Assembly: GCA_030602785.1 (NCBI GenBank)
Contig: JAUVZB010000005.1
Location: 6,300 to 70,299, forward strand
Direction: 5' to 3'
Length of the DNA stretch: 64,000 nucleotides
Source of the DNA: Dehalococcoidia bacterium
Lineage (GTDB): Bacteria > Chloroflexota > Dehalococcoidia > GIF9 > AB-539-J10
Both the position numbers and the translations under genes were made by a program. This document shows positions 16,976-60,615 of this stretch, piece by piece. Positions within the stretch are counted from its first letter, which is position 1, and each line of letters opens with the position of its first letter. Below the pieces are notes generated by a model. It was given only the letters and a program-made list of their open reading frames with translations. It had not been told where the DNA came from and did no database searches.

Positions 16976-17430
16976 GATGCCATTGGTGGAAACGCCTTTC
17001 GGATGAGGGAGATGGTGATGGACGAGCGTGAACTTGCCGGGCTGGTTTACCGGGCGGTGCAAATAGCTTCAAGAAACAGTGGCAAGGCCGTTGAATAGGG
17101 GGTTGGTAGACGATGGGGACATGGCCGGGTTCGCTATCGTATGCCTTCAGAAGCCGGCCAAGCATACCAACGGCTTCTTGACCATAGCTATTTGAAGTCC
17201 AACGGCAGCTGGCTCAAGGCCCCAATATTCATCCCAATACCGCTTGGTTCAGTTAGTTGCTGTCGGCTTATCGGCGACACGACCGCAGGCTGACACGCTC
17301 GTCAGTGGCTTTGTGGTGGGTGTTGGCCACGTGCGCGGGAGCAACAACATAGGTGCGCGTAGTCCACTTGGTATCTAAGGAGGGACGGAATGGCAATAAG
17401 AGGATTCGAGGTAGGAGGGGCAGCACAAAG

Positions 17431-28942: not shown

Positions 28943-29086
28943 GATTCTTGTCCTCCTGACTGACTCTTGTGCTGCCAACGCATATTATTAGCAGATTCGA
29001 CTACCATTCCGCCATCCTCTTCTATGGCGCGCGGACAATGAGCGCACCCCGCAGAAGGGCAGACAAACCCGCCGTCACTCCGTCAG

Positions 29087-30337: not shown

Positions 30338-30548
30338 GTGTCTGGCCTCCTCGAATTCCATCCGGCCGGGAACACTCCCGCCTTTCGAGGTCGCGAGCCC
30401 GTACATGCCACACCGGCTCTTCGGCTGCAGGTTGCGGCGCAGCCCGTAGACAATCCTCCACCAGCCCGCACTGCAATCAAGCCACACGGGGAGGGCGGCA
30501 TGCGGGACACCGAGAGACCGCACATCGCGACTGCCGGGGCTCTTCGGG

Positions 30549-31940: not shown

Positions 31941-31989
31941 TCGTCCTCCTGGTTCAAATCTGTGGTTCACCGAGGCCTTTTCCGGACAC

Positions 31990-33066: not shown

Positions 33067-33329
33067 AGTCGTCTCCCTATACCGAAAGCTCCACGCTCGG
33101 ACGATAGTCGGCACGCCGACCGACAAGTGAAAACGTCCGGGTGGAGCCGCCTCGGACAAATTCTATTGAATTCCTCTGGCAAGGGTCAATTGGGGCTGCC
33201 GACAACACCGGCCTCTGCCGGCCGAGGAACGAGGCCTCGAGCGTCGTTGTGACGGGTGCCGCGTGCGAGTATAATCGTCTGCGAAGGTTCCATCGCAGCC
33301 CCACAGGCCGGGAGGGAGGTACAGGACGA

Positions 33330-41872: not shown

Positions 41873-43108
41873 CTAGCGCCCTATGAGATCCCTCGTCGAG
41901 TCCCACATCTCACGTCGAGCGTCATCCCGCACGGACATCACCAGGGCAGGCTCAGCACCGCAAGCTGCACAGAGAGCTTCTATCACGTCCTCCTCCGTCG
42001 GAGGACAACCCGTGGCCGTGGGCCAGTCATTGTCGACGTCGGCACTGCATTCGCCAATCACAGCGACCTTATCGCCGGCATCGAACTCCTCGGGGTCACC
42101 GACAATGATTGTCAGTCCGTTCATCGCCTGCTCGTATCCAGACGCCTTCAGATACCGCAGGGCACTCTCAAGTTCGGCGATGCAGCCACCACACAACCGG
42201 GGACCCTGGACAACCTCGACACCGGGAAAACCAGCCAACAGGACCTCGAACGCCGGCTTGAAACACTCGGCGTGTGCGATGATTGACTCGCCCACCACAT
42301 CCACGTCGCCAATGCCACTCACTTCGCCGTCCCATTGTGTCATCTCTCGCAGGTACATCACCGAGTCCGGGTCCACTCCCATGAGGGCGCAGCCGACGAG
42401 ATCAGTCGCAAGGGCGTCTCTCCCCGCAAGAATCAGCCCCATCAATCTCGAGTCCTCAGGCCAACGCCAGCGCCCTTCCATGGCAACGCTTGCGTCGACA
42501 ACCGCGAAGGACGGACGCAGCACGGAGAAGAGGTCAAGCAATGTGTTGTTGATGCCGAGCATGTGTCCAGCGCGCTTCTCCGTCCCCGGCAGCACACCGT
42601 ACATGTTCTTCAAGGCAATCGTGGCATTCGTCCTGTTGTGGGTCTTAAGTACAGGAACACTGATGATCACGTCGCTCTCGAGTACTGTCCTGGCCACAAG
42701 AACCCTGTCCATCGCACGAGGCTCCGGAACCTCAACGGGGACCGCGACGTCCGAGTTGAGATAGACGCACCGGACACCCAGTCGCTGGGCGACTCCCGCA
42801 GTGCCCGAGACAGTGAAGACCTCCTCCGTGCTGCAGCTCCCTTCATCGTAGCTGACTACGGCGCCCTCAGCTATCGTCACCGAGGCTGGACCACAGTCCA
42901 GCACTGCCCTTGTGACGGCCTCCGTAACGCGAGCATCGGTAACCATGCCGCTCCCCGAGGGGAATGGTTTGCATAGATTGGGCTTGACAAGCACCCTGGA
43001 GTCCGACCTGATGAGGTCCGAGAAACCTCCTGCCTGCTCAATGGCCTCTCGCACGGCCGTCTCGAAGTCGCAGTCCACTATCTTTACGATACTCACTCTC
43101 TGTCTCAT
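41873..43108 (-). CDS. DUF362-domain protein with a Cys-rich C-terminal extension (paralogue A)
   Basis: AGGAG RBS. The DUF362 segment is VLVKPNLCKPFPSGSGMVTDARVTEAV. The C-terminus has CGGC...GECS...GCPPTEE...LCAACGA. Confidence 0.75.
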   Translation of the reverse strand: MRQRVSIVKIVDCDFETAVREAIEQAGGFSDLIRSDSRVLVKPNLCKPFPSGSGMVTDARVTEAVTRAVLDCGPASVTIAEGAVVSYDEGSCSTEEVFTVSGTAGVAQRLGVRCVYLNSDVAVPVEVPEPRAMDRVLVARTVLESDVIISVPVLKTHNRTNATIALKNMYGVLPGTEKRAGHMLGINNTLLDLFSVLRPSFAVVDASVAMEGRWRWPEDSRLMGLILAGRDALATDLVGCALMGVDPDSVMYLREMTQWDGEVSGIGDVDVVGESIIAHAECFKPAFEVLLAGFPGVEVVQGPRLCGGCIAELESALRYLKASGYEQAMNGLTIIVGDPEEFDAGDKVAVIGECSADVDNDWPTATGCPPTEEDVIEALCAACGAEPALVMSVRDDARREMWDSTRDLIGR

Positions 43109-43169
43109 CTCTTGCTCCTGTAGTCTGTCTTGCGTCCCCCATCGGGGAATCGCGTGGATGAAGCGCGCG

Positions 43170-43583
43170 CTACTCGCCGATGGCCTTCACAACTACCCGC
43201 TTCTTCCTTCGCCCATCGAACTCCGCATAGTACACCTGCTGCCACGGGCCCAGATCGAGGCGCCCGTCGGTGATAGGCACAATAACCTCGTGATGAATCA
43301 GGAGGCTCTTCAGATGCGCGTCGCCATTCATTTCCCCGGTGCCGTGGTGCCGGTAGTCCGGTCGATACGGGGCCAGCTTCTCCAGCCACTCCTCGATGTC
43401 CTGGATGAGCCCCGACTCGGCATCGTTCACATACACCCCTGCCGTTATGTGCATCGCGGAAACCAGCACGAAGCCTTCCTTGATTCCACTGCCCGCCACG
43501 ATCTTCTCTACCTCGCCCGTTATGTTCACATACTCGTGTTCATGCTGTGTATTGAACCACAGGTACTCAGTTGCCGCTTTCAT
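43170..43583 (-). CDS. YjbQ/UPF0047 family (secondary thiamine-phosphate synthase-like)
   Basis: The ATG at 43583 follows GGAGG. Motifs are [36 protein letters not shown] and [16 protein letters not shown]. Confidence 0.8.
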
Positions 43584-43746
43584 CTTGCCTCCGGACACGG
43601 ATCTCCAACGCACAACATGATACCCGCCGCACATCCATGGTGTCGATAGCTCCGGCGGAGGAGTGGATACGCCTGACGCGCTATGCTATTGTGAGCGACC
43701 CGCAAGATGCTCTTCCGGGCTTCTTCAGAGACGAAAGGAAAGCGCC

Positions 43747-44211
43747 ATGGGTATCACTATCGTTGCACTGTCTGATTCACATACGAGCACGCTCAGCAAG
43801 CTGCCGGCGGCGCTGCGTCAGGCCCTGGAGGACGCCGACCTCATCATTCACGCGGGCGACCACACGGAAAGCTCGCTTCTGGACGAACTCAACCAGCTGG
43901 GCGACGTGCTGGCGGTGGCCGGCAACATGGACTCCACCGCAATCAAGGTTCATCTCCCGCGCCGACAGCTGGCCACGTTCGGAGGGAAAACGATTGGCCT
44001 CACACACGGCTCGGGCGCCCCATGGGGAATAGCACAGAGAGTCAGGGAGACGTTTCCTGAAGACCCTGACCTCATCATCTTCGGGCATTCACACGTCTCT
44101 TTCATCGGAGTCGTGGCAGGCGTTATGATGGTCAACCCGGGACCGGCCCGCAGCAGCTACGCCGTAATACGCCTTGGTGAGGAGATTGAGGCAGAGATAG
44201 TCCCTGTCTGA
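43747..44211 (+). CDS. YfcE/MJ0936-type metallophosphoesterase
   Basis: ATG at 43747. Motifs are ALSDSH, IHAGDH, AGNMD, GLTHGSG and IFGHSH. Confidence 0.8.
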   Translation: MGITIVALSDSHTSTLSKLPAALRQALEDADLIIHAGDHTESSLLDELNQLGDVLAVAGNMDSTAIKVHLPRRQLATFGGKTIGLTHGSGAPWGIAQRVRETFPEDPDLIIFGHSHVSFIGVVAGVMMVNPGPARSSYAVIRLGEEIEAEIVPV

Positions 44212-44261
44212 CGACGCTCGAAGAACCCGAAGAACTCAGCAGGCCGATTCTACTCTGCGGA

Positions 44262-45497
44262 CTACGACTCCAGTGACTTCCTGCTGGATTCCCACATCTC
44301 CTCTCGCACCCTGTCACGAACCTCAAGCACCCGGGGGACATCGGCCCCACAGGCCTCGCACAGCACACGAACGACCCGCTCCTCGCTCGGAGCACATCCC
44401 TCCGCAAATGCGCCCAGGTGTGCATGCTGTGCTGCGCAGCGGCCGAGTACGGCTACGCGTGATGCTGGAGGAACGGTCTCCACATCGCCTATGATTACCT
44501 GCAGCTCACCCATCTCGAGTGAGTAGCCCGCCTTGTCCAGATAGGTCAGGGCCGTCACGAGCTCACTCGTGCAACCGGTGCAGGCCGATTCACCACTGAC
44601 AATCGTCACCTGAGGATACCGCTCGCTGAAGGCCTGAAATCCTGCCTTGAACTCCTTGCGGTACTCAGCAATCGGCTGCCCCACGACATTGACACCCTCG
44701 AGGTCCGGCGTCATGCCCTCTCGCTCGGCCATGTAGCGCAGGTGCATTACACGGCGCGGGTCGACCCCCATGAGGTCCGCACCTGCGAGGTCCACGGACA
44801 GCGCATGACGCCCGGCGAGAATCAATCCCACAGGGATGCAGTCCTCAGGATAGCTCCACAGGCCCTGCATACCGACCGTGGCATCAAGCACGACGAAGTG
44901 CGGACAGACAACCGAGTTCAGGTCCACTATGGCCTGGTCCAGGCCCAGCCGATGGGTCTTGCGCTTCTCTGCGCCATGTATGACGCCCTTCATGTTCTTC
45001 AGGCTGAGCGTTATGTCCGTCCTTTTGTGACTCTTCAGCACGGGAACACCGATAATCACGTCGCTCTCCAGCGCGGTCCGGGATATCCTCACGCTGTCCA
45101 TCACGAGCGCATTCTCTATCCTGACATCCTCGTAGGTGTCAGTGTTGAGATTCCGAAGCTCCACTCCCAGGCGTTCGGCGGCGTCGCGGGTTCCCGACAT
45201 AGTGAAGGCCTCTTCGGTGCTCCAACCGAGGCCGTCGTATCCTGCGCCGCAGCCTTCTCCGATGATGACTGAGTGCGGGCCATGCTCCAGCACAAGGCGC
45301 GTGACCGCCTCCGTGACACGGGAGTCGGTGATGGAGCCCGTCCCGGAGCGCTGCGGACTCCACAGGTTCGGTTTCACAAGCACCCGTGATGTGCCGCTGA
45401 TGAGGCCCTCAAGGCCCCCCGCAAGGCGGACAGCGTCGCGGACTGCCTGTTCGATATCGTTGCCCTTCACGCTCGCAACAGCAACCGTTCGCTTCAT
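44262..45497 (-). CDS. DUF362-domain protein with a Cys-rich C-terminal extension (paralogue B)
   Basis: The ATG at 45497 follows AAGGAG. The DUF362 segment is VLVKPNLWSPQRSGTGSITDSRVTEAV. The C-terminus has CTGC...GRCA...GCAPSEE...LCEACGA. At 411 aa it is the same length as paralogue A. Confidence 0.75.
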   Translation of the reverse strand: MKRTVAVASVKGNDIEQAVRDAVRLAGGLEGLISGTSRVLVKPNLWSPQRSGTGSITDSRVTEAVTRLVLEHGPHSVIIGEGCGAGYDGLGWSTEEAFTMSGTRDAAERLGVELRNLNTDTYEDVRIENALVMDSVRISRTALESDVIIGVPVLKSHKRTDITLSLKNMKGVIHGAEKRKTHRLGLDQAIVDLNSVVCPHFVVLDATVGMQGLWSYPEDCIPVGLILAGRHALSVDLAGADLMGVDPRRVMHLRYMAEREGMTPDLEGVNVVGQPIAEYRKEFKAGFQAFSERYPQVTIVSGESACTGCTSELVTALTYLDKAGYSLEMGELQVIIGDVETVPPASRVAVLGRCAAQHAHLGAFAEGCAPSEERVVRVLCEACGADVPRVLEVRDRVREEMWESSRKSLES

Positions 45498-45689
45498 GAG
45501 AGTGTCACTCCTTGACCGTGTGGCGAGAACTCCTGTAGTCCTCCGACTCAGCGTATCCAGCGAGTCGCGTCGTGTCAAAGTCAGCCCGCAGTTGCCAGTG
45601 ACAAGCCAGGAACGTGAGCCATGAGCATCTTCGCAGGGACAGGAAGACGCTCCCCCGCGCAATCCTGTCAGCCTGCAAGGGCTGGCGGG

Positions 45690-48768: not shown

Positions 48769-48882
48769 TGCCACCTGCGGCAAGTACGCAACCAACCCTG
48801 TCGTACACTTGCCGGCTGCGCTATAATGCTCCGAGAATCAAGGCTGGGACGGACACGTCGGTCCCGTTTGAGAGCGTACATC

Positions 48883-49314
48883 ATGCATAGACACCTTGTT
48901 GCCTTTCGGACGCTTTTGCCCCTGCTGGCGGCATGTTGCCTCATTCTCGCCGGGTTCGGCGGTTGCTCGCAGGGCGAGAAGCCGCTGCCGGCGGTGTCGG
49001 GCGTCCAGGTCGAGCACGGCGATGGTGACCCCGCAGATAGCGTGCTCGTGACATGGGATGCGAGCACAGACAGCCGTGTCGAGGGCTACGCCATCTATCG
49101 CGCTGAGGAGGGGCTGGGGTCCACTCCGGGCGAGAAGTCAGAGTTCGTGCTGCAGGCAATCACCTTTGCGACGCGATACGTCGACGAAGAGGTGCACACC
49201 ACGGAGCTGTACCCCTCCATCATGTACTACTACCAGATCACCGTCATCGCCGAAGGCGGCGCTCGCGGGCCAATGTCGGAAGAGGCGAGCATCGAGTATT
49301 CCCAGGCCCCATAG
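48883..49314 (+). CDS. lipoprotein with an FN3-like domain
   Basis: The ATG at 48883 is followed by a signal peptide with lipobox LAGFGGC. The FN3-like segment is VLVTWDASTDSRVEGYAIYRA...YYYQITVI. Confidence 0.6.
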   Translation: MHRHLVAFRTLLPLLAACCLILAGFGGCSQGEKPLPAVSGVQVEHGDGDPADSVLVTWDASTDSRVEGYAIYRAEEGLGSTPGEKSEFVLQAITFATRYVDEEVHTTELYPSIMYYYQITVIAEGGARGPMSEEASIEYSQAP

Positions 49315-49344: not shown

Positions 49345-50259
49345 ATGAACGGCCAGGACGCCAGACTGATAGTCAACTTCGCTCCCACGGGCATGATTCC
49401 GACCAGGGAGATGACTCCTCACGTGCCGCTGAGCGCGGCGGAAATCGTCGAGGACATTCACCAGGCAGTGGAAGTCGGTATCACGATGGTACACATCCAC
49501 GCGCGGGACGAGGCGACCGGAGAGCCAACGCACAAGGCGGAGACGTATGAGCGCATCATCAGAGGTGTAAGACGCTTCGCACCGGACCTCATCATCGCCG
49601 TGTCGCTCAGCGGGCGCACGTTCCAGGAATTCGAGAAGCGGGCGGCCCCGCTCCGACTCGACGGCGGCGCCAAACCGGACATGGGCAGCCTCACGCTGAG
49701 CTCGGTCAACTTCAACAGACAAGCAAGCGTCAACTCACCTGACATGATTCAGCGCCTGGCCCTCGAGATGCGCGACCGGGGCATACTGCCCGAACTCGAA
49801 GCATTCGACGCGGGCAGGATCAACTACGCCAGGTACCTCGACGCAAGGGGCCTGCTCGTTGCGCCGCACTACTTCAACCTGCTTCTCGGCAACATCGCGT
49901 GCGCGCAGGCAGACCTGCTGCATGTGGGAGTCATGATTCGTGACCTGCCGCCTGGCTCCTACTGGAGTCTTGCCGGCATCGGCGATGCGCAACTAACGAT
50001 GAACTCCGTGGCCATCGCCATGGGAGGAGGCGTGCGAGTCGGGCTGGAGGACCAGATCTGGTACGACCGTGGCCGCGCGAGACTCGCGCGCAACGTCGAC
50101 CTGTTGCGACGCATCCACGCGTTGGCCGAGTCAAACGAGCGCCAGGTCATGAGTCCGGCAGAGCTGCGGACGCTGCTCGACCTGGAGCCGGGCAACGGGG
50201 CCTACGGCCGGCGCTCCTCACACACGACCCACACCGACGGGACAGGCCATCCCGGGTAG
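49345..50259 (+). CDS. BKACE-family enzyme (3-keto-5-aminohexanoate cleavage enzyme-like, DUF849)
   Basis: LIVNFAPTGMIPTREMTPHVPLSAAEIVEDIHQAVEVGITMVHIHARD matches the TIM-barrel BKACE signature. Confidence 0.8.
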   Translation: MNGQDARLIVNFAPTGMIPTREMTPHVPLSAAEIVEDIHQAVEVGITMVHIHARDEATGEPTHKAETYERIIRGVRRFAPDLIIAVSLSGRTFQEFEKRAAPLRLDGGAKPDMGSLTLSSVNFNRQASVNSPDMIQRLALEMRDRGILPELEAFDAGRINYARYLDARGLLVAPHYFNLLLGNIACAQADLLHVGVMIRDLPPGSYWSLAGIGDAQLTMNSVAIAMGGGVRVGLEDQIWYDRGRARLARNVDLLRRIHALAESNERQVMSPAELRTLLDLEPGNGAYGRRSSHTTHTDGTGHPG

Positions 50260-50263
50260 CTCC

Positions 50264-51067
50264 ATGGACAAGGACGTCCGCAAATGGGAGTTCACGTCCC
50301 GCAAGTACAGCGGCGGGAAGTACATGGACCCGCTCCTCGACGAGCAGTTCAGGCGCGTCCATCTGGACCTCATCCGCAGATGGGCGCCCCAACTCGAGCA
50401 GCCGCGGGTACTGAAGACCGACGTCTTCGCCGAGGCGACATGTCCGCCGCGCGCATTCTCGTGGGACATCGGCAGCGCGGACAGGCTGGTATCCGTCGAT
50501 ATCTCTCCAAGCCTCGTCATGCAGGCGCGGGATAACGCAAGAGCCCTCGGCTACGGCAACACCGTCTACACTGCAGGCGACGCCAGAGCGCTCCCATTCG
50601 CGGACGGCAGTTTCGACATCGTTGTCTCCGACTCCACGCTGGATCACTTCCACGATAAGGGCGATATTCATCTGGGGCTCGGGGAACTGGCCAGGGTGCT
50701 TCGCCCGGGCGGAGTGCTCATTGTGACGCTGGACAATCCGTGGAACCTGTCGGAACCCTTGTTCCGGCTTTGGATCGCCCTTCACATGAGCCCCTTCTTC
50801 ATCGGCAAGACGCTGTCGGCCCGCAGCTTGCACAGGGCGTTGACCGAGCTTGACCTTGATGTCACAGATGCCACGGCCATACTTCACAACCCACGACTCT
50901 TCGCAAAGGCCGGCATGCGGCTGCTCCGCATGCTGAAACCGCCGCGTTACGAGCGCGTCGCAGCACGACTTCTCGGAATGGGTGATGCGATGGAACGTGC
51001 CGGCACCAGGTATCTCACAGGACAATTCGTGGCAGTGCGCGCCGTCAAGCCACACCCCGGGTCCTGA
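50264..51067 (+). CDS. class I SAM-dependent methyltransferase
   Basis: It starts 4 nt after the BKACE stop. Motifs are LPFADGSFDIVVSDSTLDHF and VLRPGGVLIVTL. Confidence 0.7.
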   Translation: MDKDVRKWEFTSRKYSGGKYMDPLLDEQFRRVHLDLIRRWAPQLEQPRVLKTDVFAEATCPPRAFSWDIGSADRLVSVDISPSLVMQARDNARALGYGNTVYTAGDARALPFADGSFDIVVSDSTLDHFHDKGDIHLGLGELARVLRPGGVLIVTLDNPWNLSEPLFRLWIALHMSPFFIGKTLSARSLHRALTELDLDVTDATAILHNPRLFAKAGMRLLRMLKPPRYERVAARLLGMGDAMERAGTRYLTGQFVAVRAVKPHPGS

Positions 51068-51127: not shown

Positions 51128-52321
51128 CTACACGTCAAGCTCCATGCGCCTGCGCTCCTGTGCTTCCCATCGTCGGATTCGAAGAATCCCGTACAGCTCC
51201 CGGGGAGTGTGACGATGGGAGAGGAACAGGGCAATCCGCAACCATAGATACGCAGCCGAAGCAGGAATGGGCATGGGGCCGGTGCATCTGCTCACAACCA
51301 GTTCGACGTATGTCCTGTACGTCCGTGTCCAGTAGAACTTGTACGGCTCGGCCCCCCTGAGGAAATCCACCTCTCGCACCCCGACCGTCATTACCTCGCG
51401 GAACAGCTGCATACCGTGAAGGTGCCCGACACTGTACTCGGAGAACTGGCTCTCGCGGCCCGACCGAAGGAGATACGCTACTCCATCCAGAACCACCGCC
51501 AGGTGCACTGAGGCGGTCCGGCCACTCACCTTCATGGACGAGAGTCGAAGCCAACCGAGCCGGTCCAAGTCCCTCGCAATCCTGTTGTGGAAGGCACGGC
51601 TCGGTTCGTCACGAAACAGGCCCCGCATGCCAACCTCACTCCAGCGGGCCTGGTGCAGTCGGTAGAGTTCGTTCATGACCGCCTGAATACTGTCGCCCGA
51701 ACTCCGATCGAAGACCACGTCATGATGGTCCCGCTCAAGCCGTCTCTGCGCGCGACCGAGTACCTTGCGCCTGCGTCTTCCGACTACCACGAGCAAGTCC
51801 TCCCAGAATGCGGGAAGTGGTACGTACGGAGCCTGCGACACTGTCCGCTCACACCATCGTACACCCGGCCCCGTGGCCGTGAGGGACTCCTTCAGAGCGC
51901 TCAGGAGCGGGAGCTCGGCAGGAACAAGAGAGAGCCGAAGGTAGAGGCCACGACTCAGCGCGGCGCTGCAGAGGTGGTCGGCAATAGCACGGGCAACTTC
52001 CCGGCTAACATCAGGCTGTACCAGTGCAATCCGATTGCGACTCTGTGTGCCTATCGTCTCCAGCGTGTGCAGAGCAAGCGGCCCGATGCTCCAGCGGCGG
52101 CGCACCAGCGGCATGATGCCCACCACCCGGTGTTCATCCTGCACTATCAGAACGTGGAGGCCCTCCCCCTGGCCATAGTGCTCGACCCACGCGCGTATCC
52201 ATTCGAAGGACAGGAAGGGGCTGCGGGCATCAATGCATCGCTCCCAGAGCGCCCGCCACTCATCCACCTCTCCATCAAGCTGACGGATGGAATCCAATAC
52301 CCGGACCTGCAGATGAGTCAT
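51128..52321 (-). CDS. BioF2/FemAB/CelD-like GNAT acyltransferase
   Basis: 397 aa. Motifs are SPFLSFEWIRAW, HRVVGIMPL and FLRGAEPYKFYWT. Its start overlaps the stop of the upstream paralogue (ATGA, 52318-52321). Confidence 0.7.
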   Translation of the reverse strand: MTHLQVRVLDSIRQLDGEVDEWRALWERCIDARSPFLSFEWIRAWVEHYGQGEGLHVLIVQDEHRVVGIMPLVRRRWSIGPLALHTLETIGTQSRNRIALVQPDVSREVARAIADHLCSAALSRGLYLRLSLVPAELPLLSALKESLTATGPGVRWCERTVSQAPYVPLPAFWEDLLVVVGRRRRKVLGRAQRRLERDHHDVVFDRSSGDSIQAVMNELYRLHQARWSEVGMRGLFRDEPSRAFHNRIARDLDRLGWLRLSSMKVSGRTASVHLAVVLDGVAYLLRSGRESQFSEYSVGHLHGMQLFREVMTVGVREVDFLRGAEPYKFYWTRTYRTYVELVVSRCTGPMPIPASAAYLWLRIALFLSHRHTPRELYGILRIRRWEAQERRRMELDV

Positions 52322-53061
52322 GCCTTGCCGTCTTCTGTGACGCTCCTTCCTTCACGACCCGGCAGCCTTGAGACAGGGGGCTGCAGTCCACTAGCCGCGA
52401 GAGTCTCCTCCTTCCAGTTGGTCCTCCACAGCAGCTTCATGTAACGTCCGACCCCGTAGACAGTCGGGGCAAACCTGGCGTGGGCCTTCTGGGAGGCAAC
52501 ATTCGTGACCTCGACCGCATTGCGGGAGGACACATAACCCCTCTTCCGCAGATACTCAAGACGTTCATAGTAGCCATAGGCCATGAGGCCTCTGCCGCGG
52601 TACTTCGGCACGGTGCGCGTACCGCCAGTACATGCCTGCCGCTCTCCAAACGCAACCCGGTACGGCAGCACATCGATGCAGCGCTTGGATTCCTCATCAA
52701 GGGCGACCCAGCCGACATGCGCAAGTTCAGAGCCAACGTAGACACAGAAGGCGACGGCCCCCTTCTTCTCGAGAAGTCCACGAGAGAAGACAAAGGCTGA
52801 GCGCAAATCCTCAAGGCCCTCTGCAACGAGCCCGTCCGCCTCTTCATTGGAGTGAACTACCTTCAAGTCGTACGACTCCAGCCGCGGCAGGAACTTGTCA
52901 CGCGGCCGCGGCACCAGGTTGTGTTCGTAGAGATACACGTCCTGGCGACGGTACACACGTCGAAACAAGAAGCCTGCAAACTCGATCGCATGCCACAATA
53001 AGGCACCTGCCCCTTCGGTTCTCAGAATGTCACGTGCGCGCGATATCAGTGCTGCCAGCAT
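52318..53061 (-). CDS. GNAT-fold acyltransferase, array paralogue P1
   Basis: The shared core is GAVAFCVYVGSELAHVGWVAL...LPYRVAF...TGG...PKYRGRGLMAY...RLEYL...NVASQ. I chose the ATG at 53061 by alignment to the paralogue N-termini (MLAALISRARDILRTEG). The ORF is open to 53265. Confidence 0.65.
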   Translation of the reverse strand: MLAALISRARDILRTEGAGALLWHAIEFAGFLFRRVYRRQDVYLYEHNLVPRPRDKFLPRLESYDLKVVHSNEEADGLVAEGLEDLRSAFVFSRGLLEKKGAVAFCVYVGSELAHVGWVALDEESKRCIDVLPYRVAFGERQACTGGTRTVPKYRGRGLMAYGYYERLEYLRKRGYVSSRNAVEVTNVASQKAHARFAPTVYGVGRYMKLLWRTNWKEETLAASGLQPPVSRLPGREGRSVTEDGKA

Positions 53062-53290
53062 GTACGTTTTCTTGCCCACGTCGTAGAAGACACCCCACAC
53101 AAGCCCGGGTATGTTGGATTGTGTGTCAAAGGCCGGCCGGCAGTCAATGGGCGCCTTGTCCAACGAAGAGGTTGTGGGGTGCCGAACCATCGACAGTAGC
53201 TGCAGGTGGAACTCCAACAACGCGTGCCCGGCCGGCGGATTCGCAGTGCAGAAGGCAGAGTCCAATCATGCGCAACATGGACTCACGGAA

Positions 53291-53995
53291 TCACGGCCTG
53301 GACTCGGGCGGGCGCAGGCAATCTCTCTCAAGCGGTTTCTCCCTCCAGTACGACCATCCAAACACTCTGACGTAGAACCCCCTGGCCCGCGGCTTGCCGG
53401 CGAACTTTTCAGAGACGCGTTGCGAGACGACATTGCCGGTACGCGAGGCATCGCGGTTCACCCTGTAGCCGCGTTCCTGCAGATACTTGAGCCGCTCACC
53501 CAGGCAGTAGGACATCAGTCCCTTGCCCCGATACCCGGGAGCGGTGAAGTCTCCTCCCGTGGAAGCCTCTCCGTGCTCGAAGTCAACACTGTACGGGATT
53601 CGGTCGAAGCAGTCCTTGGCCCTCTTCGTAAGCCCGAACCACCCGACATTTGCCAATTCGCGCCCCTCGTGGACGCAGAAGGCGACCGCACCGCGGTTAA
53701 GGTTTCGGCGCGCCATGATGAACCTTGTCCGAAGATCTTCGAACCCCCGTGCAGCAAGCTGGTCGGCCTCTTCATTCGTCTCGACTATGTGAAGCATGTA
53801 CGACTCGGGGAGGGCGCGCGACTGCGGCATCCCGCCTGACACCAAGTCGTACTCGTACAGATAGACGCTACCGCATTCCACGAACTGGCTCCACAAGTAC
53901 ACCGGGAATGCGATGGAATGTCTCAGAAGTGCCGACGCTCCCTCGTTACGCAGTATCTGCAGAGCACGAGAGGCCAGGATTCGTGTCACAGTCAT
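53291..53995 (-). CDS. GNAT-fold acyltransferase, array paralogue P2
   Basis: The core is GAVAFCVHEGRELANVGWFGL...IPYSVDF...TGG...PGYRGKGLMSY...RLKYL...NVVSQ. The ATG at 53995 follows GGTGGTG. The ORF is open to 54019. Confidence 0.65.
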   Translation of the reverse strand: MTVTRILASRALQILRNEGASALLRHSIAFPVYLWSQFVECGSVYLYEYDLVSGGMPQSRALPESYMLHIVETNEEADQLAARGFEDLRTRFIMARRNLNRGAVAFCVHEGRELANVGWFGLTKRAKDCFDRIPYSVDFEHGEASTGGDFTAPGYRGKGLMSYCLGERLKYLQERGYRVNRDASRTGNVVSQRVSEKFAGKPRARGFYVRVFGWSYWREKPLERDCLRPPESRP

Positions 53996-54163
53996 CAGTT
54001 CACCACCACGGGCACACATCGCCCGAAGTGTGTTCGTGCGCCGGCCGTTCCGTTCATGGTCATACTATGCCCGTAGCGTCACGGTTCTGCCCCGCTGTCC
54101 GTATGCGTGCCAATGCGCCACATGACAAGCCTTCCCTAAAGGCAGCGCACCCGCGCCGCAGAG

Positions 54164-54851
54164 TCAACTCCCGCCGCTAGCCAATGGAATGACTTCCTCC
54201 GAGGCCCCCTGTCTGAGGCAGTGCCAGCCAAACAGCCTCAGGTACAGTGCGCGCACGCGAGTTGAGGCGACTGTCCGCGACATTGCACGTTGCGACGGTA
54301 CGTTGCTCACACGCACATCAGAACGAGATATCACACACCCATGCGCCCTCAGATAAGCCAAGCGCCGGGAATAGCTGTACTGCTGGAGTCCTTTTCTTCG
54401 AAATTCGGGGAAGGTGAATACACCACCGGTGCATCCTTCGCCGCGTGCGAAGTCGATGGCATACGGCACATCATCGAAGCACTCCTTGGCCTCCTTCGAG
54501 AATCCCAGCCAGCCGACATGCGCAAGTTTCGTTCCCGAGTAGACGCAGAAGGCTATGGCACCACGACGCAGGTGTCGAGACGACCCCAGCAGCCTTTCCC
54601 TCACATCCTCATAGCCGTGTGCCACAACTCTGTCGGCATCCTCATTCGAACACAGGAAGTGCGTGGCAAACGCGTCGAGCCGGGGCGGCTCCGGCGACGG
54701 TGGAAGCTCAGCAAGGTCAATCCGATAGAGGTACAACCGCTCAATCACTACGCGCTTCGCCAGGAGCCATGCAGGGAAGCGTACGCCTCGCCACAGAAGA
54801 GCGGCGTACCCCTTCGGTGGCCAGAATCGTCCGCGCCCGGGATTTGAGCAT
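54164..54851 (-). pseudogene. GNAT-fold acyltransferase, array paralogue P3, with an N-terminal frameshift (or a sequencing error)
   Basis: The annotated ORF 54164..54748 lacks the conserved N-terminus. That N-terminus (MLKSRARTILATEG from the ATG at 54851) lies in another frame. It joins ...GYAALLWRGVRFPAWLLAKRVVIERLYLY... if one base is removed from the CCCC run at 54809-54812. Confidence 0.6.
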
Positions 54852-55065
54852 TCCCAGAGTGCCCGAGGACGCTGTCACTTGACCGGTGCCTCCTTCCAGT
54901 CAGTCCACCACAGCACCCGGCGATAATGGCCCGCCCTGTCAAAGCGCGCGACGAACGACAGAGAGGAAACCATCATCGGCGCCACCCACCGCGCAGACTC
55001 ACCATTCCTCTGACTACGCACTATCACTTCGACTCCACGGTCGCAGCGAAAACAATCTCGTGCAG

Positions 55066-55737
55066 CTACGTGTCGCCTTCGTCCCAAGGATACTCGGTCC
55101 ACCGCATTCGGCCAAACAGTATCCGCACGTGTGCCCTGCTGACCACCCTGTGAGGAAAGACCTCCTGACCGCGGAGGGACGGCACGTTATCGGCCAAGGT
55201 GGCGTTGCGACACACTGTGCATCCATGTGATTGCAGATAGGCCAGCCTCCAGCCCATTACGTATCGGTAGATGCCCCGTCCCCGGTATCGGGGAAACGTC
55301 CGCGACCCTCCGGAGCATCCCTCGCCGTTTGCGAAATCGACGGCGTAGGGAAGGACATCAAACGACCGCTTCGCGTCCGCATCGAGCGCCACCCAGGCGA
55401 TGTGCACAAGCACACGGTCAACGTGTGCGCAGAACGCGACCGCGCCGCTCTCCAGTCTTCGCCCGGAGCATCCAATAGCCAGGCGGAAGTCCTCGTATCC
55501 TCCCCGGGCAAGCCGGTCAGCATCGTCCTCGTCTTCGATGACATGGACTTCCAGTCCCGCAACGGGCGGGGCCAGACTCACATCGCCGAGCTCAGTCAGC
55601 ACGAACTCGTGGACAAGGAACCTCGCACTCCAGAAGGCACGTTGCACGAGAGCTGACCAAGAGCGGGCTATACCGAGCATCAAGCCCCGAACACCCTCGG
55701 TCTTGAGGAGCCTCGCCGCACGGGACATCAGCGACAC
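55066..55737 (-). CDS. GNAT-fold acyltransferase, array paralogue P4
   Basis: The core is GAVAFCAHVDRVLVHIAWVAL...LPYAVDF...SGG...PRYRGRGIYRY...RLAYL...NVPSL. The GTG at 55737 lies 8 nt after GGAGG. The ORF is open to 55785. Confidence 0.65.
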   Translation of the reverse strand: MSLMSRAARLLKTEGVRGLMLGIARSWSALVQRAFWSARFLVHEFVLTELGDVSLAPPVAGLEVHVIEDEDDADRLARGGYEDFRLAIGCSGRRLESGAVAFCAHVDRVLVHIAWVALDADAKRSFDVLPYAVDFANGEGCSGGSRTFPRYRGRGIYRYVMGWRLAYLQSHGCTVCRNATLADNVPSLRGQEVFPHRVVSRAHVRILFGRMRWTEYPWDEGDT

Positions 55738-55792
55738 GAGAGAGGCCTCCCTCCCAAACACAGGCGAGATGATGCGGAGACACAATTACGGT

Positions 55793-57178
55793 TCAAGGGA
55801 GACTCTCCCACTCATTCAGTCTGGATACCACCACTGCCCTCTTCCCGCGAGACATTGCAGCTATTTCGGGTGCAAGCTCAATCTCCACCCGCATTGACGG
55901 TCCCAGGATGGACTCGTATCTTGACTTCACAGAGGAGACAGTCCTGCCAACACACTCGGCGTCACAGCAAGCGTTCAGGACCAGTCTCAGCTTCACGGCG
56001 TCCGTCCGTTCCTGCACAATCTGAAACTGCTCAATGCCCAGTTGCGCAAGATAGCCAAACACCAGAGCTGCACCCGGGATTTCTCTCCCGTCAGCAGTCA
56101 CGATTATGTCACACCTGCGTCCCTCCAACCCCCTCAACAGCGGCAGCCCTCTGCCACAGGCGCACTGCTCTTCTACCATCGCCCCGATATCGCCCAACTC
56201 GTAGCGGATGAACGGCATGCAGTAGTTGTGCAGGTTCGTGACAACGATGCGCCCGACTGTGCCAGGTGGCACAGGTTGATCTTCGTCATCGAGCACTTCC
56301 ACGATCACGTTCTCTGCCGCGACGTGGAATCCCGACCCTGCAGGGCACTCGCAGGCAATGTCAAGCACTTCGTGCGAGCTGTATTTGCTGAACGGACGGC
56401 ACCCGAAGACGTCCGCTATCACCTCTCTCTGGTGGCAATACAGAGGCTCGCCTTCAGTCACGACAGAGCGCGGGCGGAACCGAGAACCACCCCTGCGCCT
56501 GATGTGCAGAGCCAACAGGTACACGGCAGACGGATAGCCTCGAAGCAGCGCAGGATTGTGTCGTTCGAGCGCCACAACCAGGCGCTCGACCCTTGCCCCG
56601 GACATGTCATACACATCAAACAGCGTCTCCCTTTGAAGACGTGCAGTGATATCAGCAGTCACTGCCACTCTTCGCGCGCATGACTCGCGCTGCTCGACAA
56701 GCCTCACGGACGAGTCCCCGAGGCGAAAGCCGCTCCATCCCAGAGCTCGCAGCGAACGCGCGTAGCCCCGGCTGTACCGGTCCTCCAGTGTCGTGCAAAA
56801 CGTCAGCGGCTCACCGGTGGAGCCACTGGTTCGAGCTACCAGACTCCTGCGTCCCGGGAATCCCGTGGCCTGAAGCTCCGCACTGTGACGTCGCACATCG
56901 CGCCTGTTGAGGACAGGCAAAGCGGAGAGGTCCGAGGCAGTATTGATGTCTGCATGCGTGAGCCCCCTGTCGTCGAAGGCCTGGCGATAGAACGGCACCC
57001 TCTCGTAGGCGTACTGGAGCAGCATGCGAAGGCGCCGGCTCTGGAGTTCGAGAAGCTGCTCGCGCGACCACCATTGCGTTCGCTCAAGCTCCGCGAGACA
57101 CCGAATCGTGCTGGTGCCCCGCAGTGCATCGAGAACCCGGGCCAGCACGAAACGAGCCGCAATGTTGTACGCACCCAT
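55793..57178 (-). CDS. adenylate-forming ligase of the PaaK / CapK / coenzyme F390 synthetase family
   Basis: 461 aa. The P-loop-like motif is RTSGSTGEPLTF. Also present are YELGDIG and a C-terminal RGKRAVV. It starts 2 nt after the stop of P5. Confidence 0.8.
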   Translation of the reverse strand: MGAYNIAARFVLARVLDALRGTSTIRCLAELERTQWWSREQLLELQSRRLRMLLQYAYERVPFYRQAFDDRGLTHADINTASDLSALPVLNRRDVRRHSAELQATGFPGRRSLVARTSGSTGEPLTFCTTLEDRYSRGYARSLRALGWSGFRLGDSSVRLVEQRESCARRVAVTADITARLQRETLFDVYDMSGARVERLVVALERHNPALLRGYPSAVYLLALHIRRRGGSRFRPRSVVTEGEPLYCHQREVIADVFGCRPFSKYSSHEVLDIACECPAGSGFHVAAENVIVEVLDDEDQPVPPGTVGRIVVTNLHNYCMPFIRYELGDIGAMVEEQCACGRGLPLLRGLEGRRCDIIVTADGREIPGAALVFGYLAQLGIEQFQIVQERTDAVKLRLVLNACCDAECVGRTVSSVKSRYESILGPSMRVEIELAPEIAAMSRGKRAVVVSRLNEWESLP

Positions 57179-57180
57179 CT

Positions 57181-57924
57181 CTATTCCTGCGCCTTCTCGG
57201 AGGGTGGCTCGCCCGCCATCGGCGAAGTGCCGGTGGCATCACAGGCAGCGGAAGAGTCCGAGAACAGCACCCGACCAAAGAGCCGGACAACGCGGATGGT
57301 CATCAGTTCCCTCGCACCAAGGCGTTCGTACAGCGCCCATGAAGCGGTGTTGCGTCGCTCCACTGCGCAACGCATTGTCACCACGCCTTCTCTACTGAGG
57401 TCCCTGAGTAGCCAGGCGGTCACGTATTTCCCCACTCCCATACCCCTGTACTCCCGCATCGTGAGCACCCGGCTCAGCACAGCCTCTTTACCAGACTCTC
57501 GCACACCGTACGGGAGGGAATCAAGTGCCTGCTTGCTCCGGCACGTGAGGGCCACCCAGGTAACATGAGCAATCGTGCTGCCGACATACGCAACGTAGGC
57601 CCAGGCACCGGCTCTGAGGAAGCGCTCAGCGCCTGCGACGTACCGTCTCAGGTCAGCACAGCCCTGGGCAACAAGTTCATCAAGTTGAGCGGTTCTCGTC
57701 ACGCGGAACACACGGAGCCCCTCGAAAGGACAGGTCACGGACGGAATATCGATGCCGTCCAGGCGGAGTTCCGCCACGCGGTATTCGTTCCTGCGCAGAC
57801 CAAGAGCTCCTACCCTCCCCGAAACGTAGCACGCCGAACGACCCGCAAGCGCCTTCCATCCTCCATCACGCCACGCCTGCCCCGCTCTGGCAGAGAGAAC
57901 GTGCAACTCCTCAAGAAGCACCAC
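57181..57924 (-). CDS. GNAT-fold acyltransferase, array paralogue P5 (most diverged)
   Basis: The core is GAWAYVAYVGSTIAHVTWVAL...LPYGV...REYRGMGVGKY...NTASWALYERLG. The start is GTG. Confidence 0.65.
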   Translation of the reverse strand: MVLLEELHVLSARAGQAWRDGGWKALAGRSACYVSGRVGALGLRRNEYRVAELRLDGIDIPSVTCPFEGLRVFRVTRTAQLDELVAQGCADLRRYVAGAERFLRAGAWAYVAYVGSTIAHVTWVALTCRSKQALDSLPYGVRESGKEAVLSRVLTMREYRGMGVGKYVTAWLLRDLSREGVVTMRCAVERRNTASWALYERLGARELMTIRVVRLFGRVLFSDSSAACDATGTSPMAGEPPSEKAQE

Positions 57925-57971
57925 AGAATAGCCTCGTCTCGCAAGACCTGGTTCCGAAGGGAACGAACGGG

Positions 57972-58895
57972 TTACCGCGTCTTGCGCCGCAACGACTCAC
58001 ACACGCTGGAGTGAACCGAAGCAGGCACGCCAAGCTCGCGCCCCTGCCGAACGACATAGCCCAGCATCGTATCCAGCTCCGTCCGTCGGCCACTCTCGAC
58101 ATCGAGCTGCATAGACGACTTCGTGTCCCGGGGGAATGCCCCCGCCTTTTCCAGTGACTGCTCTACGACGTCCCCGGGAAGTTCGACACCCTTCTTCCGG
58201 GCAAGAGCCTCCACTTCACTCATCATGCCGGATAGTTGCTTCCTCAGCCCGGGGTCGTCGATGGCTTGGCCTATCGTCACGCCGTGAAGAGACGTCACGC
58301 CAGAGACAGGGCCGATGAAGATGAACTTGGTCCACACCTCTTCGAGTATGTTCGCGCTCAACGCCGCGTCGATGCCGGCAGCCTTGAGTATCTCCTCGAT
58401 CAGCCTGTAGGGTTCGGTCCTGCCATCAGGGTTTCCGAAGAAGAGCTTGCGGCTGCCACCTGTCTGCTCAACAACACCGGGCGCCTCGACATGCGTCGAG
58501 ATGTACGCACAGCCGTTCAACACATCCCCCGTGCAAAGCCCCTGCTTCAGTGTCTCATCGTTGTCCACGCCGTTGCCCAGCGGGATGACGACCGTTCGGG
58601 GTGAGATGGCCACAGCCATCGAGCGGGCCGCCTCCAGCAGATCGTAGCCCTTCACGCAGAACAGGGCGACGTCCACAGTCCCCATCTCAGCAGGGGTATC
58701 AGTTACGAGGGAAGGTCGAGCCATCCATTCGCCGTCACGAGCAATGAGCTTGAGGCCGTTCTTCCTGATCGCCTCCATGTGCGCGCCTCTACAATAAAAG
58801 ACGACCTCGTGCTCGCTGCCGGGCGGATACGTGTATGCCAGTCTGCCGCCGTAGTATCCTCCAACGCCACCAATGCCCACCACGGCTACTCTCAT
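57972..58895 (-). CDS. ketopantoate reductase (PanE/ApbA) family 2-oxoacid reductase
   Basis: The ATG at 58895 lies 6 nt after GGAGGAGGG. The N-terminus is MRVAVVGIGGVGGYYGGRLA. The C-terminal domain is SSMQLDVESGRRTELDTMLGYVV. Confidence 0.8.
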   Translation of the reverse strand: MRVAVVGIGGVGGYYGGRLAYTYPPGSEHEVVFYCRGAHMEAIRKNGLKLIARDGEWMARPSLVTDTPAEMGTVDVALFCVKGYDLLEAARSMAVAISPRTVVIPLGNGVDNDETLKQGLCTGDVLNGCAYISTHVEAPGVVEQTGGSRKLFFGNPDGRTEPYRLIEEILKAAGIDAALSANILEEVWTKFIFIGPVSGVTSLHGVTIGQAIDDPGLRKQLSGMMSEVEALARKKGVELPGDVVEQSLEKAGAFPRDTKSSMQLDVESGRRTELDTMLGYVVRQGRELGVPASVHSSVCESLRRKTR

Positions 58896-59068: not shown

Positions 59069-60424
59069 CTACTCGTAGGAATAGTAGTGGACTATCAGCT
59101 TCGGCAGGTTCCCGGCAGTCCAGCGAAGCAGGTCATTGTCGCCGTTGCCATCGGTCTCATCATCTCTGAACTGGAGCCTCAACTGGAACCTGTCCTCCCC
59201 CACCATTTCCCCCAGCGCGTCTTTGAAGTCATCATCATCATCAGGGTCAAAGTCATCGAAATCGCAGTACTTCCCAATGGCCCCGACAGGAGTGCCCTCA
59301 AAGTAGTCCCCTCCGTCCAGGGTGCCGTAGTCATCGACATACGCCCTGAGGCAACCGAGGTCGTCGAAAGGCGTGCCCAGCGGGGTGTTGTAGTCCGAGA
59401 AGTCCACGACGACTCCCGCAATCATGGCATCATCAGGGATGTCTGAGATGTCAAAAGTAATGAATGCCTGAATGCCGACGTCGTTGTTATCGTCACCGCC
59501 ATAGATGTACTCATCCCAGGGCACTCCGGTACTGCGGACATAGCCACTCTCGTCTATCACAGCCTCAAGCGTGACCGTGTAGCTGTCCGGCATCTCCAGA
59601 TAGCTCTCGACATCCACCGTGGCACTCACAATGTCCACGCCGTTGGTCGCAGTGAGGGTGAACGTCACTGTCTGCTCTCCGGTCAAGGTTACTTCCTCGC
59701 TGCCTGTAGAATCCACCGCTCCGATGATCGGCAGAATCTTGGCTTCGGTCGCGCCGGCCACCTCCCAGCTCAGGGTTGAGACTTCGCCTGAAGCAACCTG
59801 CTCAGGATCAGCCTCGAAGAAGACGATGGCAAGTTCCTCGGCTTCCACAGTGACAGTGAGCTGTGCCGAGGCGGTTGCACCACCGCCTTCCGCGGTCAGA
59901 GTGTATGTCGTTGTGGCGGCAGGCGATACACTGACCGAACCTGCCGGCTCGACCTCGCCGATGCCCTGGTTGATGCTCACGTCAGTCGAATCTGAGACAC
60001 TCCATGAGAGAGTTGCACTCCCTCCCTCTGCAATCGTCTGTGGACTGGCGGTGAAGAAATCGACCTTGGCAGGACCGGTTATGCCCGGCAAGACCCTTAC
60101 TGCACTCCGGACCTCAGCCGACCACGCGTCGTTGTTGTCCTGTACCTTGAAGAACACCATGTGGTCGCCGACTGAGAGCGAGCTTGTCTCAAAGGCTTTC
60201 TTTGAGCTCAGCTCGTCGTCCTTGTCGGACCTCCAGCGATAGGCCACAATCTCGCCGTCGGCGTCGGTCCCATGCCCATCGAAACTCACTTCCCCGCCGG
60301 CAACTACCTCTGAAGGGGAGATCTCATCGATGTATGCCTTGGGCGGCTGGTTCGACTGCGGCATGATATACGAGCAGCCGGATAACAGCAGAAGCGAACA
60401 CAGCGCAAGAATAGCCTTCTTCAT
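59069..60424 (-). CDS. lipoprotein with a PKD-like domain, two tandem Ig-like repeats and an acidic C-terminal domain
   Basis: The ATG at 60424 follows GGAGGTGAGG. The lipobox is LLLLSGCS. The PKD-like segment is FDGHGTDADGEIVAYRW. The internal repeats are TLSWSVSDSTDVSI / TLSWEVAGATEAKI. The tail is Asp-rich. Confidence 0.7.
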   Translation of the reverse strand: MKKAILALCSLLLLSGCSYIMPQSNQPPKAYIDEISPSEVVAGGEVSFDGHGTDADGEIVAYRWRSDKDDELSSKKAFETSSLSVGDHMVFFKVQDNNDAWSAEVRSAVRVLPGITGPAKVDFFTASPQTIAEGGSATLSWSVSDSTDVSINQGIGEVEPAGSVSVSPAATTTYTLTAEGGGATASAQLTVTVEAEELAIVFFEADPEQVASGEVSTLSWEVAGATEAKILPIIGAVDSTGSEEVTLTGEQTVTFTLTATNGVDIVSATVDVESYLEMPDSYTVTLEAVIDESGYVRSTGVPWDEYIYGGDDNNDVGIQAFITFDISDIPDDAMIAGVVVDFSDYNTPLGTPFDDLGCLRAYVDDYGTLDGGDYFEGTPVGAIGKYCDFDDFDPDDDDDFKDALGEMVGEDRFQLRLQFRDDETDGNGDNDLLRWTAGNLPKLIVHYYSYE

Positions 60425-60615
60425 GTCCTCACCTCCCACCCGCATTGTCTGCGAGGGTGTCATTATACAAGACGCGAATCATACTTATGCTAACGTGCGG
60501 CCCATCCGGCGAGTTTAGGGTCCGGTGCCGATGGTCCCGTCAGCGGACAGCCACGCCTTGCAACCAGTGCCGCGCTGAGGTAGCATGCAATGGCTGCAAC
60601 CCGCGAGTGACAACT

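Follow-up and report, generated by a model that had tools for sequence, protein, structure and literature searches.

A recombining, copy-number-variable array of GNAT paralogues in Dehalococcoidia, with a possible role in acyl tailoring of surface glycans

Organisation of the gene cluster

The subject of this analysis is a gene cluster in a 64-kb stretch of DNA from a Dehalococcoidia bacterium (positions 6,300 to 70,299 of contig JAUVZB010000005.1), here called the window, the numbering of which is used throughout. The cluster is built around an array of five paralogous GNAT-type genes, P1 to P5, interrupted by the gene for an adenylate-forming ligase of the CapK/PaaK type, preceded by that of a PanE/ApbA-type 2-oxoacid reductase (PanE) and followed by that of a Fem-like (Acetyltransf_6, Fem/BioF2/CelD-like) protein. 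The extra GNAT copies are subject to birth and death: by unequal recombination at a conserved core, the array grows, shrinks and gives rise to chimeras. What recurs between loci is a P1-type GNAT gene followed by a gene for a Fem-like protein of the PF13480 family, usually with genes for a beta-keto acid cleavage enzyme (BKACE) and a methyltransferase alongside. Tentatively, we read the locus as a module for the acyl tailoring of a surface glycan or glycoconjugate.

Eight open reading frames, all on the minus strand, lie between positions 51128 and 58901, exactly where a sequence-only reading of the same DNA had placed them. Read along that strand, they are the PanE gene (57972..58895), P5 (57181..57924), the ligase gene (55793..57178), P4 (55066..55785), P3 (54164..54851, its open reading frame covering 54164-54748), P2 (53291..54019), P1 (52318..53061) and the gene for the 397-residue Fem-like protein (51128..52321). 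The PanE gene is located 47 nt upstream of P5. A gap of 2 nt separates P5 from the ligase gene, and the P1 stop codon overlaps the start of the Fem-like gene by 4 nt (ATGA); the gap and the overlap had both been reported before and follow directly from the coordinates. The description of all these genes as tightly packed does not hold for the array itself, with spacers of about 215 nt between P4 and P3, 144 nt between P3 and P2 and 229 nt between P2 and P1. On the other strand, just outside the interval that had been singled out, the plus-strand genes for a class I S-adenosylmethionine-dependent methyltransferase (50264..51067) and the BKACE (49345..50259) are found, the former convergent with the Fem-like gene.

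P1 to P4 are marked at the DNA level by repeats with a period of 870-930 nt. Among them is a conserved 54-nt core repeat (direct-repeat family D1), coding for the GAVAFC...HVGW segment and present at 52708-52761, 53639-53692, 54509-54562 and 55393-55446, with 70-80% identity between its copies. The G+C content and codon-position bias of the array are like those of the remainder of the window. Ahead of the PanE ATG, a candidate promoter and a strong ribosome-binding site had been proposed; the ribosome-binding site is there (GGAGGAGGG), but the promoter scan found no site in front of this gene. Over the array region, the promoter and terminator scan gave two promoter-like sites where 1.8 are expected, i.e. 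no excess over chance. A sigma-70-like match in the P2-P1 spacer, upstream of P1 (53118-53147, minus strand; TTGACT, 18-nt spacer, CACAAT), could be an internal promoter for P1 and the Fem-like gene, the total of such matches in the region being no more than chance. A scan of the whole window against Rfam gave no matches.

The GNAT paralogue family

The five paralogues align end to end, with pairwise identities of 25-48%, bearing out the common core that had been described. In the 91 alignment columns from GAVAFC to NVxSQ, P1 and P2 are identical at 49, exactly the count given before. P5 is, as suggested, much the most distant copy, with 25-30% identity to the others. Identity between copies is 31-54% in the C-terminal core, against 25-48% over the full length: divergence between the copies is concentrated in the N-terminal half, which is far more diverged than the CoA-binding half. 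In GNATs generally, the acceptor site is formed by the N-terminal half, while the other, conserved half binds CoA.

In Pfam, the GNAT model PF00583 recognises P5 above its threshold (33.6 bits, cut-off 20.7) and P1 to P4 below it (14.4-18.6 bits); at E<=0.01, it matches 22 of 62 family members. Matches of P4 and P5 to a hidden Markov model (HMM) of the family itself have E-values of 6e-74 and 4e-61, respectively. The glycine acyltransferase model PF08444 (Gly_acyl_tr_C; cut-off 27 bits) is approached by P1 (17.9 bits) and P2 (14.9 bits), and sub-threshold matches to it also occur in 13 of the 62 members. All five copies keep the Arg and the Gly three residues further on in the CoA loop (YRGRG, YRGKG, FRRKG, YRGRG, YRGMG) as well as the motif-B Asn, so the loss of acyl-CoA-binding residues that would mark decaying duplicates is not seen. 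Over the 62 members, the loop Arg and Gly are each at least 90% conserved; the sixth loop position is not Gly or Ala. A G-to-R change at first taken to break the CoA loop of P3 was withdrawn as a lesion, the altered residue being a variable loop position.

An AlphaFold2 (AF2) model of P2, built from the 62 family sequences, has a mean predicted local distance difference test score (pLDDT) of 93. It consists of an N-terminal two-helix hairpin followed by a standard GNAT core, with the order beta1-alpha1-alpha2-beta2-4-alpha3-beta5-alpha4-beta6-7. Between beta4 and alpha3, the site at which the CoA pyrophosphate is bound in GNATs, is the YRGKG loop. Comparison of this model with the PDB using Foldseek gave 53 matches with E<=1e-3, and the 50 listed are all GNAT-type folds: GNATs, aminoacyl-phosphatidylglycerol synthase/MprF domains and N-myristoyltransferases. 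The top matches are two-lobed or tandem GNATs, namely a GLYAT-like fly protein, VipF, a glucosamine N-acetyltransferase, PamZ, MshD, the clavulanate tandem GNAT and bovine GLYAT. The best PDB profile match is to glycine N-acyltransferase, over the CoA loop. The copies are thus predicted to adopt a GNAT fold with an intact CoA loop.

Searching a profile of the five copies against 1.84 billion representative sequences returned 1286 clusters with E<=1e-3, 210 of them with E<=1e-30; the clusters consist nearly all of full-length proteins of about 225 residues. The family amounts to hundreds of clusters at 50% identity, mostly from Chloroflexota-type metagenomes, and has no curated model. The members found are named hypothetical protein or carry a generic GNAT label, and Pfam and NCBIfam hold no model specific to them; because they have neither a specific name nor a curated model, the paralogues constitute a distinct, previously undescribed and uncharacterised GNAT subfamily with an N-terminal helical hairpin. 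These names agree with the earlier statement that no characterised pathway matches the gene set. In one metagenomic member of 423 residues (P0017), the family domain is fused to an N-terminal region with a weak match to Peptidase_S24 (LexA/signal-peptidase-like; 23.0 bits, cut-off 23.3).

Copy number, recombination and selection

Relatives of the locus were drawn from metagenome-assembled genomes of Dehalococcoidales, Dehalococcoidia and Chloroflexota and from metagenomes, the latter scanned for the family with a 12-sequence alignment. The sequence-only reading had proposed a check of synteny in related genomes. In the closest clade, the flanks are syntenic, with the order OYE, Fic, PKD lipoprotein, PanE, array, Fem-like gene, then, convergently, methyltransferase, BKACE, FN3-like lipoprotein, UvrD and MBL; the content of the array itself varies. 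The number of family copies in syntenic relatives ranges from one to nine: one in L010 and L022, two in L001 (one of them frameshifted), three in L016 and L019, four in L003, L004, L005 and L020, at least six in L024, eight in L013 and nine in L015 (one degraded), compared with five and a relic in the window.

A neighbour-joining tree of the family places the P1-type copies, those adjoining the Fem-like gene, as orthologues in all related arrays and clusters them with the single-copy distant members, so P1 is probably the ancestral "core" copy. The other copies fall into several orthologous sets and lineage-specific duplicates, with P5 on a long branch.

The closest relative of the window by its Fem-like protein (91% identity), L010, has a single family gene (L010 1081-1815). 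This gene shares 74-95% identity with P4 over the N-terminal half and 80-87% with P1 over the C-terminal half. In blastn alignments, L010 1-1390 corresponds to window 56817-55428 and L010 1378-3133 to window 52755-51000; the two segments abut inside the core repeat copies of P4 (55393-55446) and P1 (52708-52761). Compared with the window, L010 has lost about 2.67 kb through homologous recombination of one paralogue with another, which produced an in-frame P4/P1 chimera. As a fusion of two paralogues, with the N-terminal half from one and the C-terminal half from the other, this gene is a clean natural experiment; it suggests how specificity domains are laid out and could guide enzyme engineering.

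Traces of the same process are found in the window. P3 is not intact but split by a frameshift: its N-terminal helix (MLKSRARTILATEGVR; start codon ATG, 54851) and its body are not encoded in one frame, and the intact L011 orthologue is shorter by 1 nt over the stretch from about 54800 to 54820. P3 is possibly a pseudogene, the product of an assembly error, or a gene for an N-terminally truncated protein starting at the GTG at 54748. In the spacer between P4 and P3, positions 54881..54955 (minus strand) match the C-terminus of one family copy (L002_1of3) with 72% identity over 25 residues in tblastn. Weaker matches are obtained to the C-termini of many other members, weaker similarity reaches to about 55051, and a 27-nt direct repeat (D4) is shared with the 3' end of P1 at 89% identity. 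The spacer retains about 25 C-terminal codons of a sixth copy, the rest of which has been deleted. The L010 chimera, this relic and the frameshifted copies (P3 of the window and one in L001) demonstrate that the array evolves by birth and death through unequal crossing-over.

The copies that remain are nonetheless under constraint. Measured against orthologues 76-85% identical, the ratio of non-synonymous to synonymous substitution rates (dN/dS) is lowest for P1, at 0.19; it is 0.33 for P2 (L002 orthologue, 76% identical), 0.40 for the body of P3, 0.37 for P4 (L011 orthologue, 84% identical) and 0.59 for P5 (L011 orthologue, 80% identical). Ratios for the partner genes are 0.30 (ligase), 0.28 (Fem-like) and 0.25 (methyltransferase). 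The range of 0.19-0.59 for the copies implies that they are maintained. Together with the orthologous sets shared between genomes, it upholds the earlier view of old, retained duplicates and speaks against relaxed selection, which had been named as a sign of decay.

Partner genes

The domain assignments made for the partner genes from the sequence agree with Pfam and NCBIfam. The Fem-like protein matches PF13480 over model positions 1-142 of 143 (90.8 bits, cut-off 22, E 1e-25). Its gene immediately follows the last family copy, both in the window and in 27 of the 61 fetched loci bearing a family copy; these 61 include near-duplicates, and the paired loci span family identities of about 40-80%. 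As read from the genes, the pair is translationally coupled in the window, L001 and L010. We know of no previous description of an obligate pairing between a PF13480 protein and a small GNAT of this family. PF13480 proteins are common in polysaccharide loci. No curated NCBIfam model matches the Fem-like protein (BspF, 12 bits against a cut-off of 775), and of the FemAB models, PF04339 (FemAB_like) reaches 14.9 of the 27 bits required and PF02388 gives no match. Alignment of the GNAT family with the Fem-like family by hhalign revealed no specific relationship between the two. The protein is thus a PF13480 member, and not a demonstrable FemXAB or tRNA-dependent enzyme.

The methyltransferase (PF08241, E 1.5e-16) has homologues close to the module in L001-5, L010, L012, L016-23, L028, L029, L031 and L034. 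The BKACE (PF05853, E 1e-79) is of an uncharacterised subtype, staying below all NCBIfam equivalog cut-offs (best NF052387, 226.5 against 382); it lies convergently beside the Fem-like gene in L007-9, L022, L023 and L028-30. In L002, a remnant at 4849-5142 comprises the first 57 and last 43 codons of the BKACE gene, the result of an internal deletion, while the Fem-like gene, the methyltransferase gene and the array are all intact; the BKACE is therefore dispensable in L002. Between the Fem-like gene and the methyltransferase/BKACE genes, L001 (4922-5653) and L015 (12994-13800) contain a formyltransferase-like gene (Formyl_trans_N) that the window lacks; it may encode a further tailoring enzyme.

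The ligase carries the RTSGSTGEP motif and a C-terminal GK, and resembles PaaK, F390 and DVU_1553 enzymes. Its PDB matches are to PaaK (E about 2e-22). In NCBIfam, its best matches (the DVU_1553 family, FlxY and PaaK) are all far below the cut-offs (TIGR02155, 90.9 against 646.3; NF041878, 108 against 700). Precomputed annotations assign PF27533 (CapK_C) to homologues 80-87% identical to it; our local copy of Pfam gives no such match for the window protein. The ligase gene is present in L010, L011, L012, L013 and L015, and L011 has the order P5, ligase, P4, P3 as in the window, at 80% identity. L003, L004, L005, L016, L019 and L020, the flanks of which are intact on both sides, have neither the ligase gene nor a copy of the P5 type. 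The CapK/PaaK-type ligase is an optional accessory part.

PanE is matched by PF02558 and PF08546 (each with E about 1e-29) and by the subfamily model TIGR00745 (221.7 bits, cut-off 141.35). Its best equivalog, NF005091, is not reached (214.3 against 252); passing a subfamily model and no equivalog, the assignment does not fix a substrate. In L001, L003-5, L013, L015, L016, L019, L020 and L021, the PanE gene immediately precedes the array; the distant versions of the module in L007, L028 and L012 have none. Only in this clade is it a co-oriented upstream neighbour.

Genomic context

In distant loci, the family copies of which are about 40% identical to those of the window, the unit is a family gene, a Fem-like gene and a convergent BKACE gene, often in the vicinity of a gene of the same methyltransferase family as in the window (L007-9, L028-30). 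The L007 and L028 loci continue beyond this unit with genes for two GT2 glycosyltransferases, an NAD-dependent epimerase/dehydratase, a Wzx-like Polysacc_synt protein, an amino-acid dehydrogenase, the methyltransferase and an NTP_transferase (sugar nucleotidyltransferase). L012 has the order methyltransferase, family copy, AsnB-like amidotransferase, ligase, family copy, Fem-like gene. In L061 (8001-14337), a ligase gene with 45% identity and a family copy are accompanied by two GT2 genes, one GT4 gene and genes for a GFO/IDH/MocA oxidoreductase, Wzx and AglB/STT3, which suggests an N-glycosylation-type locus on a bacterial metagenome contig. Gene sets of the capsule, exopolysaccharide or N-glycan kind were found only at L007, L028 and L061, and not around the window cluster.

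Two genes for predicted surface lipoproteins flank the cluster in syntenic relatives; in the window, they are at 59069-60463 and 48826-49314, with lipobox-like LLSGC and FGGC sequences and PKD- or FN3-like domains.

The remainder of the window is ordinary chromosome. Between 16000 and 20000, the G+C content is about 0.545, compared with about 0.61 elsewhere, with positive GC skew; this segment includes a GT4 gene (17353-18555) and a radical SAM/SPASM gene (18597-19997) and may have been acquired horizontally. Further tandem paralogue pairs occur at 27692-30523 and 41873-45662: two adjacent HMGL-like genes (homocitrate/isopropylmalate synthase type) and two nearby DUF362 genes. Two trehalose routes are adjacent at 30549-35516, a TreT-type synthase (30549-32090) and a fused OtsA-OtsB (33141-35516).

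Proposed function and alternatives

We consider it possible, if tentatively, that the locus is a module for the acyl tailoring of surface glycans or glycoconjugates, its GNAT array turning over by birth and death. The module would N- or O-acylate its target, with the P1-type GNAT and the Fem-like enzyme as core catalysts. The GNAT copies would use an acyl-CoA donor, because their CoA-binding half is conserved, and the extra copies would differ in the acceptor or acyl group that they accept, since it is on the acceptor side, in the N-terminal half, that the copies have diverged far more. In loci that have it, the ligase would activate a carboxylic acid as an acyl-adenylate or CoA thioester feeding the GNATs. 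Known BKACE members convert a beta-keto acid and acetyl-CoA to acetoacetate and a new acyl-CoA, and the BKACE of the module may supply an unusual acyl-CoA; in this clade, PanE may supply a 2-hydroxy acid. The glycan loci L007, L028 and L061, the gene order of L012 and the predicted lipoproteins flanking the cluster in syntenic relatives make a surface-glycan target the most likely one.

Several observations weigh against this proposal. Genes for glycosyltransferases, flippases or sugar-nucleotide enzymes are not found within 30 kb of the array, the nearest glycosyltransferase genes being those at window positions 14.9-18.6 kb. L049 and L040 have five or six family copies and no Fem-like, BKACE or glycan genes nearby; their arrays neighbour genes for thioredoxin, an M20 peptidase, MTHFR and DUF3160. 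Among the paralogues, P5 alone clears the Pfam GNAT threshold, and the Foldseek TM-scores are only about 0.45. Sequence and profile searches of the PDB with the Fem-like protein returned no relative, of Fem type or other, and a single-sequence AF2 model of this protein, with a pLDDT of 39.7, is unusable. The BKACE and methyltransferase genes are in a convergent transcription unit, so their link to the array could be inherited synteny, and the BKACE gene of L002 is a deletion remnant.

The main rival is a role in conjugation or detoxification of small molecules. The PaaK-type ligase would make aryl- or alkyl-acyl-CoA and the GLYAT-like copies would N-acylate amino acids or amines, the array widening the range of substrates as in other expanded enzyme families of Dehalococcoidia. 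The Gly_acyl_tr_C matches of P1, P2 and 13 of the 62 members fit such a role, as do the glycine N-acyltransferase found as best PDB profile match, the GLYAT-type structures among the top Foldseek matches and the phenylacetate-CoA ligases nearest to the ligase in the PDB. Arrays without envelope genes, one of them beside an M20 amidohydrolase-type peptidase, point the same way, and variation in copy number suits an environmentally adaptive family. We nonetheless regard this role as unlikely: PF08444 remains below threshold (17.9 against 27), many arrays have no ligase, and the tight, often translationally coupled pairing with PF13480 and the glycan-locus contexts are left unexplained.

The sequence-only reading had envisaged one pathway, with a 2-hydroxy acid made by PanE, its activation by the ligase and the successive action of the five GNATs and the Fem-like transferase. 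The co-orientation of all the genes, the short distances at both ends of the array (47 nt between PanE and P5, 2 nt between P5 and the ligase, the overlap of P1 and the Fem-like gene), the position of PanE immediately upstream of the array throughout the clade and the purifying selection on all copies would suit it. However, with one to nine copies in syntenic relatives, the number of steps is not conserved; six syntenic loci have no ligase, the distant versions of the module have no PanE, P3 of the window is frameshifted and L010 makes do with one chimeric copy. The array does not amount to an assembly line with five set steps, and we rate a pathway of this kind as improbable because copy number, ligase and PanE are all unconserved.

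Less probable again is resistance or self-immunity, with the copies N-acetylating various amine-bearing antibiotics or toxins in the manner of PamZ and of phosphinothricin and aminoglycoside acetyltransferases. PamZ, phosphinothricin acetyltransferases and AAC(6') are indeed among the structural and profile matches, and tandem diversification with variable copy number is typical of defence-type families. These are generic GNAT similarities, however (TM-score about 0.45, E-values of about 1e-3 to 1e-6); NCBIfam models of resistance families give no match, the flanks contain no mobile-element genes and are stably syntenic in the clade, and the PF13480, BKACE and methyltransferase partners are unexplained. 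A mobile island or defence system was likewise considered and rejected, since mobility genes are absent and the synteny of the flanks is stable throughout the clade. The least probable alternative is that proteins rather than glycans are modified, for instance the flanking lipoproteins or S-layer proteins, through acylation of their N-termini. The two predicted PKD-/FN3-like lipoproteins that flank the cluster in syntenic relatives, and the N-terminal acetyltransferases and N-myristoyltransferase among the Foldseek matches, would be in line with this, but the flanking genes are not retained in the distant versions of the module.

If the locus is an acyl-tailoring module, it could go further and act as a recombination-driven cassette system: unequal crossing-over in the CoA-binding core would shuffle the variable acceptor-side halves and alter copy number, so that close Dehalococcoidia would differ in the acyl decoration of their surface glycans or S-layer glycoproteins. 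We think this extension distinctly unlikely. If true, it would provide an enzymatic route to surface variation, e.g. under phage pressure, and would make a previously undescribed GNAT family the obligate pair of a PF13480 transferase. The envelope chemistry of Dehalococcoidia is poorly known, and a tailoring module with strain-level variation in copy number would give a concrete handle on it. The natural unit of the family pairs it with a PF13480 protein, the function of which is just as uncharacterised, and practical value is modest before the substrate is identified. Literature searches on BKACE with GNAT, on CapK, on PF13480, on FemAB with exosortase and on Dehalococcoidia glycosylation retrieved no paper on the family or on this type of locus.

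Comparison with known systems

A GNAT-based tailoring module is of a known kind; what is new is the recombining, copy-number-variable array. Among characterised GNATs, the predicted fold, the R-x-x-G loop between beta4 and alpha3 and the motif-B Asn are shared with the two-lobed or extended proteins GLYAT (PDB 7pk0), VipF, PamZ, MshD and the clavulanate tandem GNAT, which are also the best matches. The array copies differ from these in their N-terminal helical hairpin of about 45 residues, the TM-scores of about 0.45 and the sub-threshold Pfam scores of P1 to P4, and form a group of their own.

The Fem-like protein resembles other PF13480 proteins (BioF2-like, CelD/BcsL-like and FemAB-related proteins of exopolysaccharide loci, and Brucella BspF) in matching the whole model, but unlike them it has no curated NCBIfam match, is sub-threshold for PF04339 and has no solved relative by sequence. 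The ligase shares its ANL motif and similarity to PaaK with the PaaK/CapK (COG1541) ligases of capsule and glycan loci, and homologues with PF27533 occur in glycan loci (L061); it is not, however, a PaaK equivalog, TIGR02155 and NF041878 being far from reached. Similarly, the BKACE does not reach the equivalog cut-off of any characterised subtype (Kce and others). In mammalian glycine conjugation, an acyl-CoA ligase and GLYAT follow the same logic as would the ligase with P5 or P4, a carboxylate being activated and then N-acylated onto its acceptor by a transferase of the GNAT fold; this is an analogy without orthology, and in the array the ligase is optional.

As a genetic structure, the array is comparable to tandem multigene families that evolve by unequal crossing-over, given its one to nine copies, its relic and the chimera junction of L010 within the conserved core. 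The units of those families are surface antigens or receptors, whereas here they are metabolic GNAT enzymes of a free-living anaerobe.

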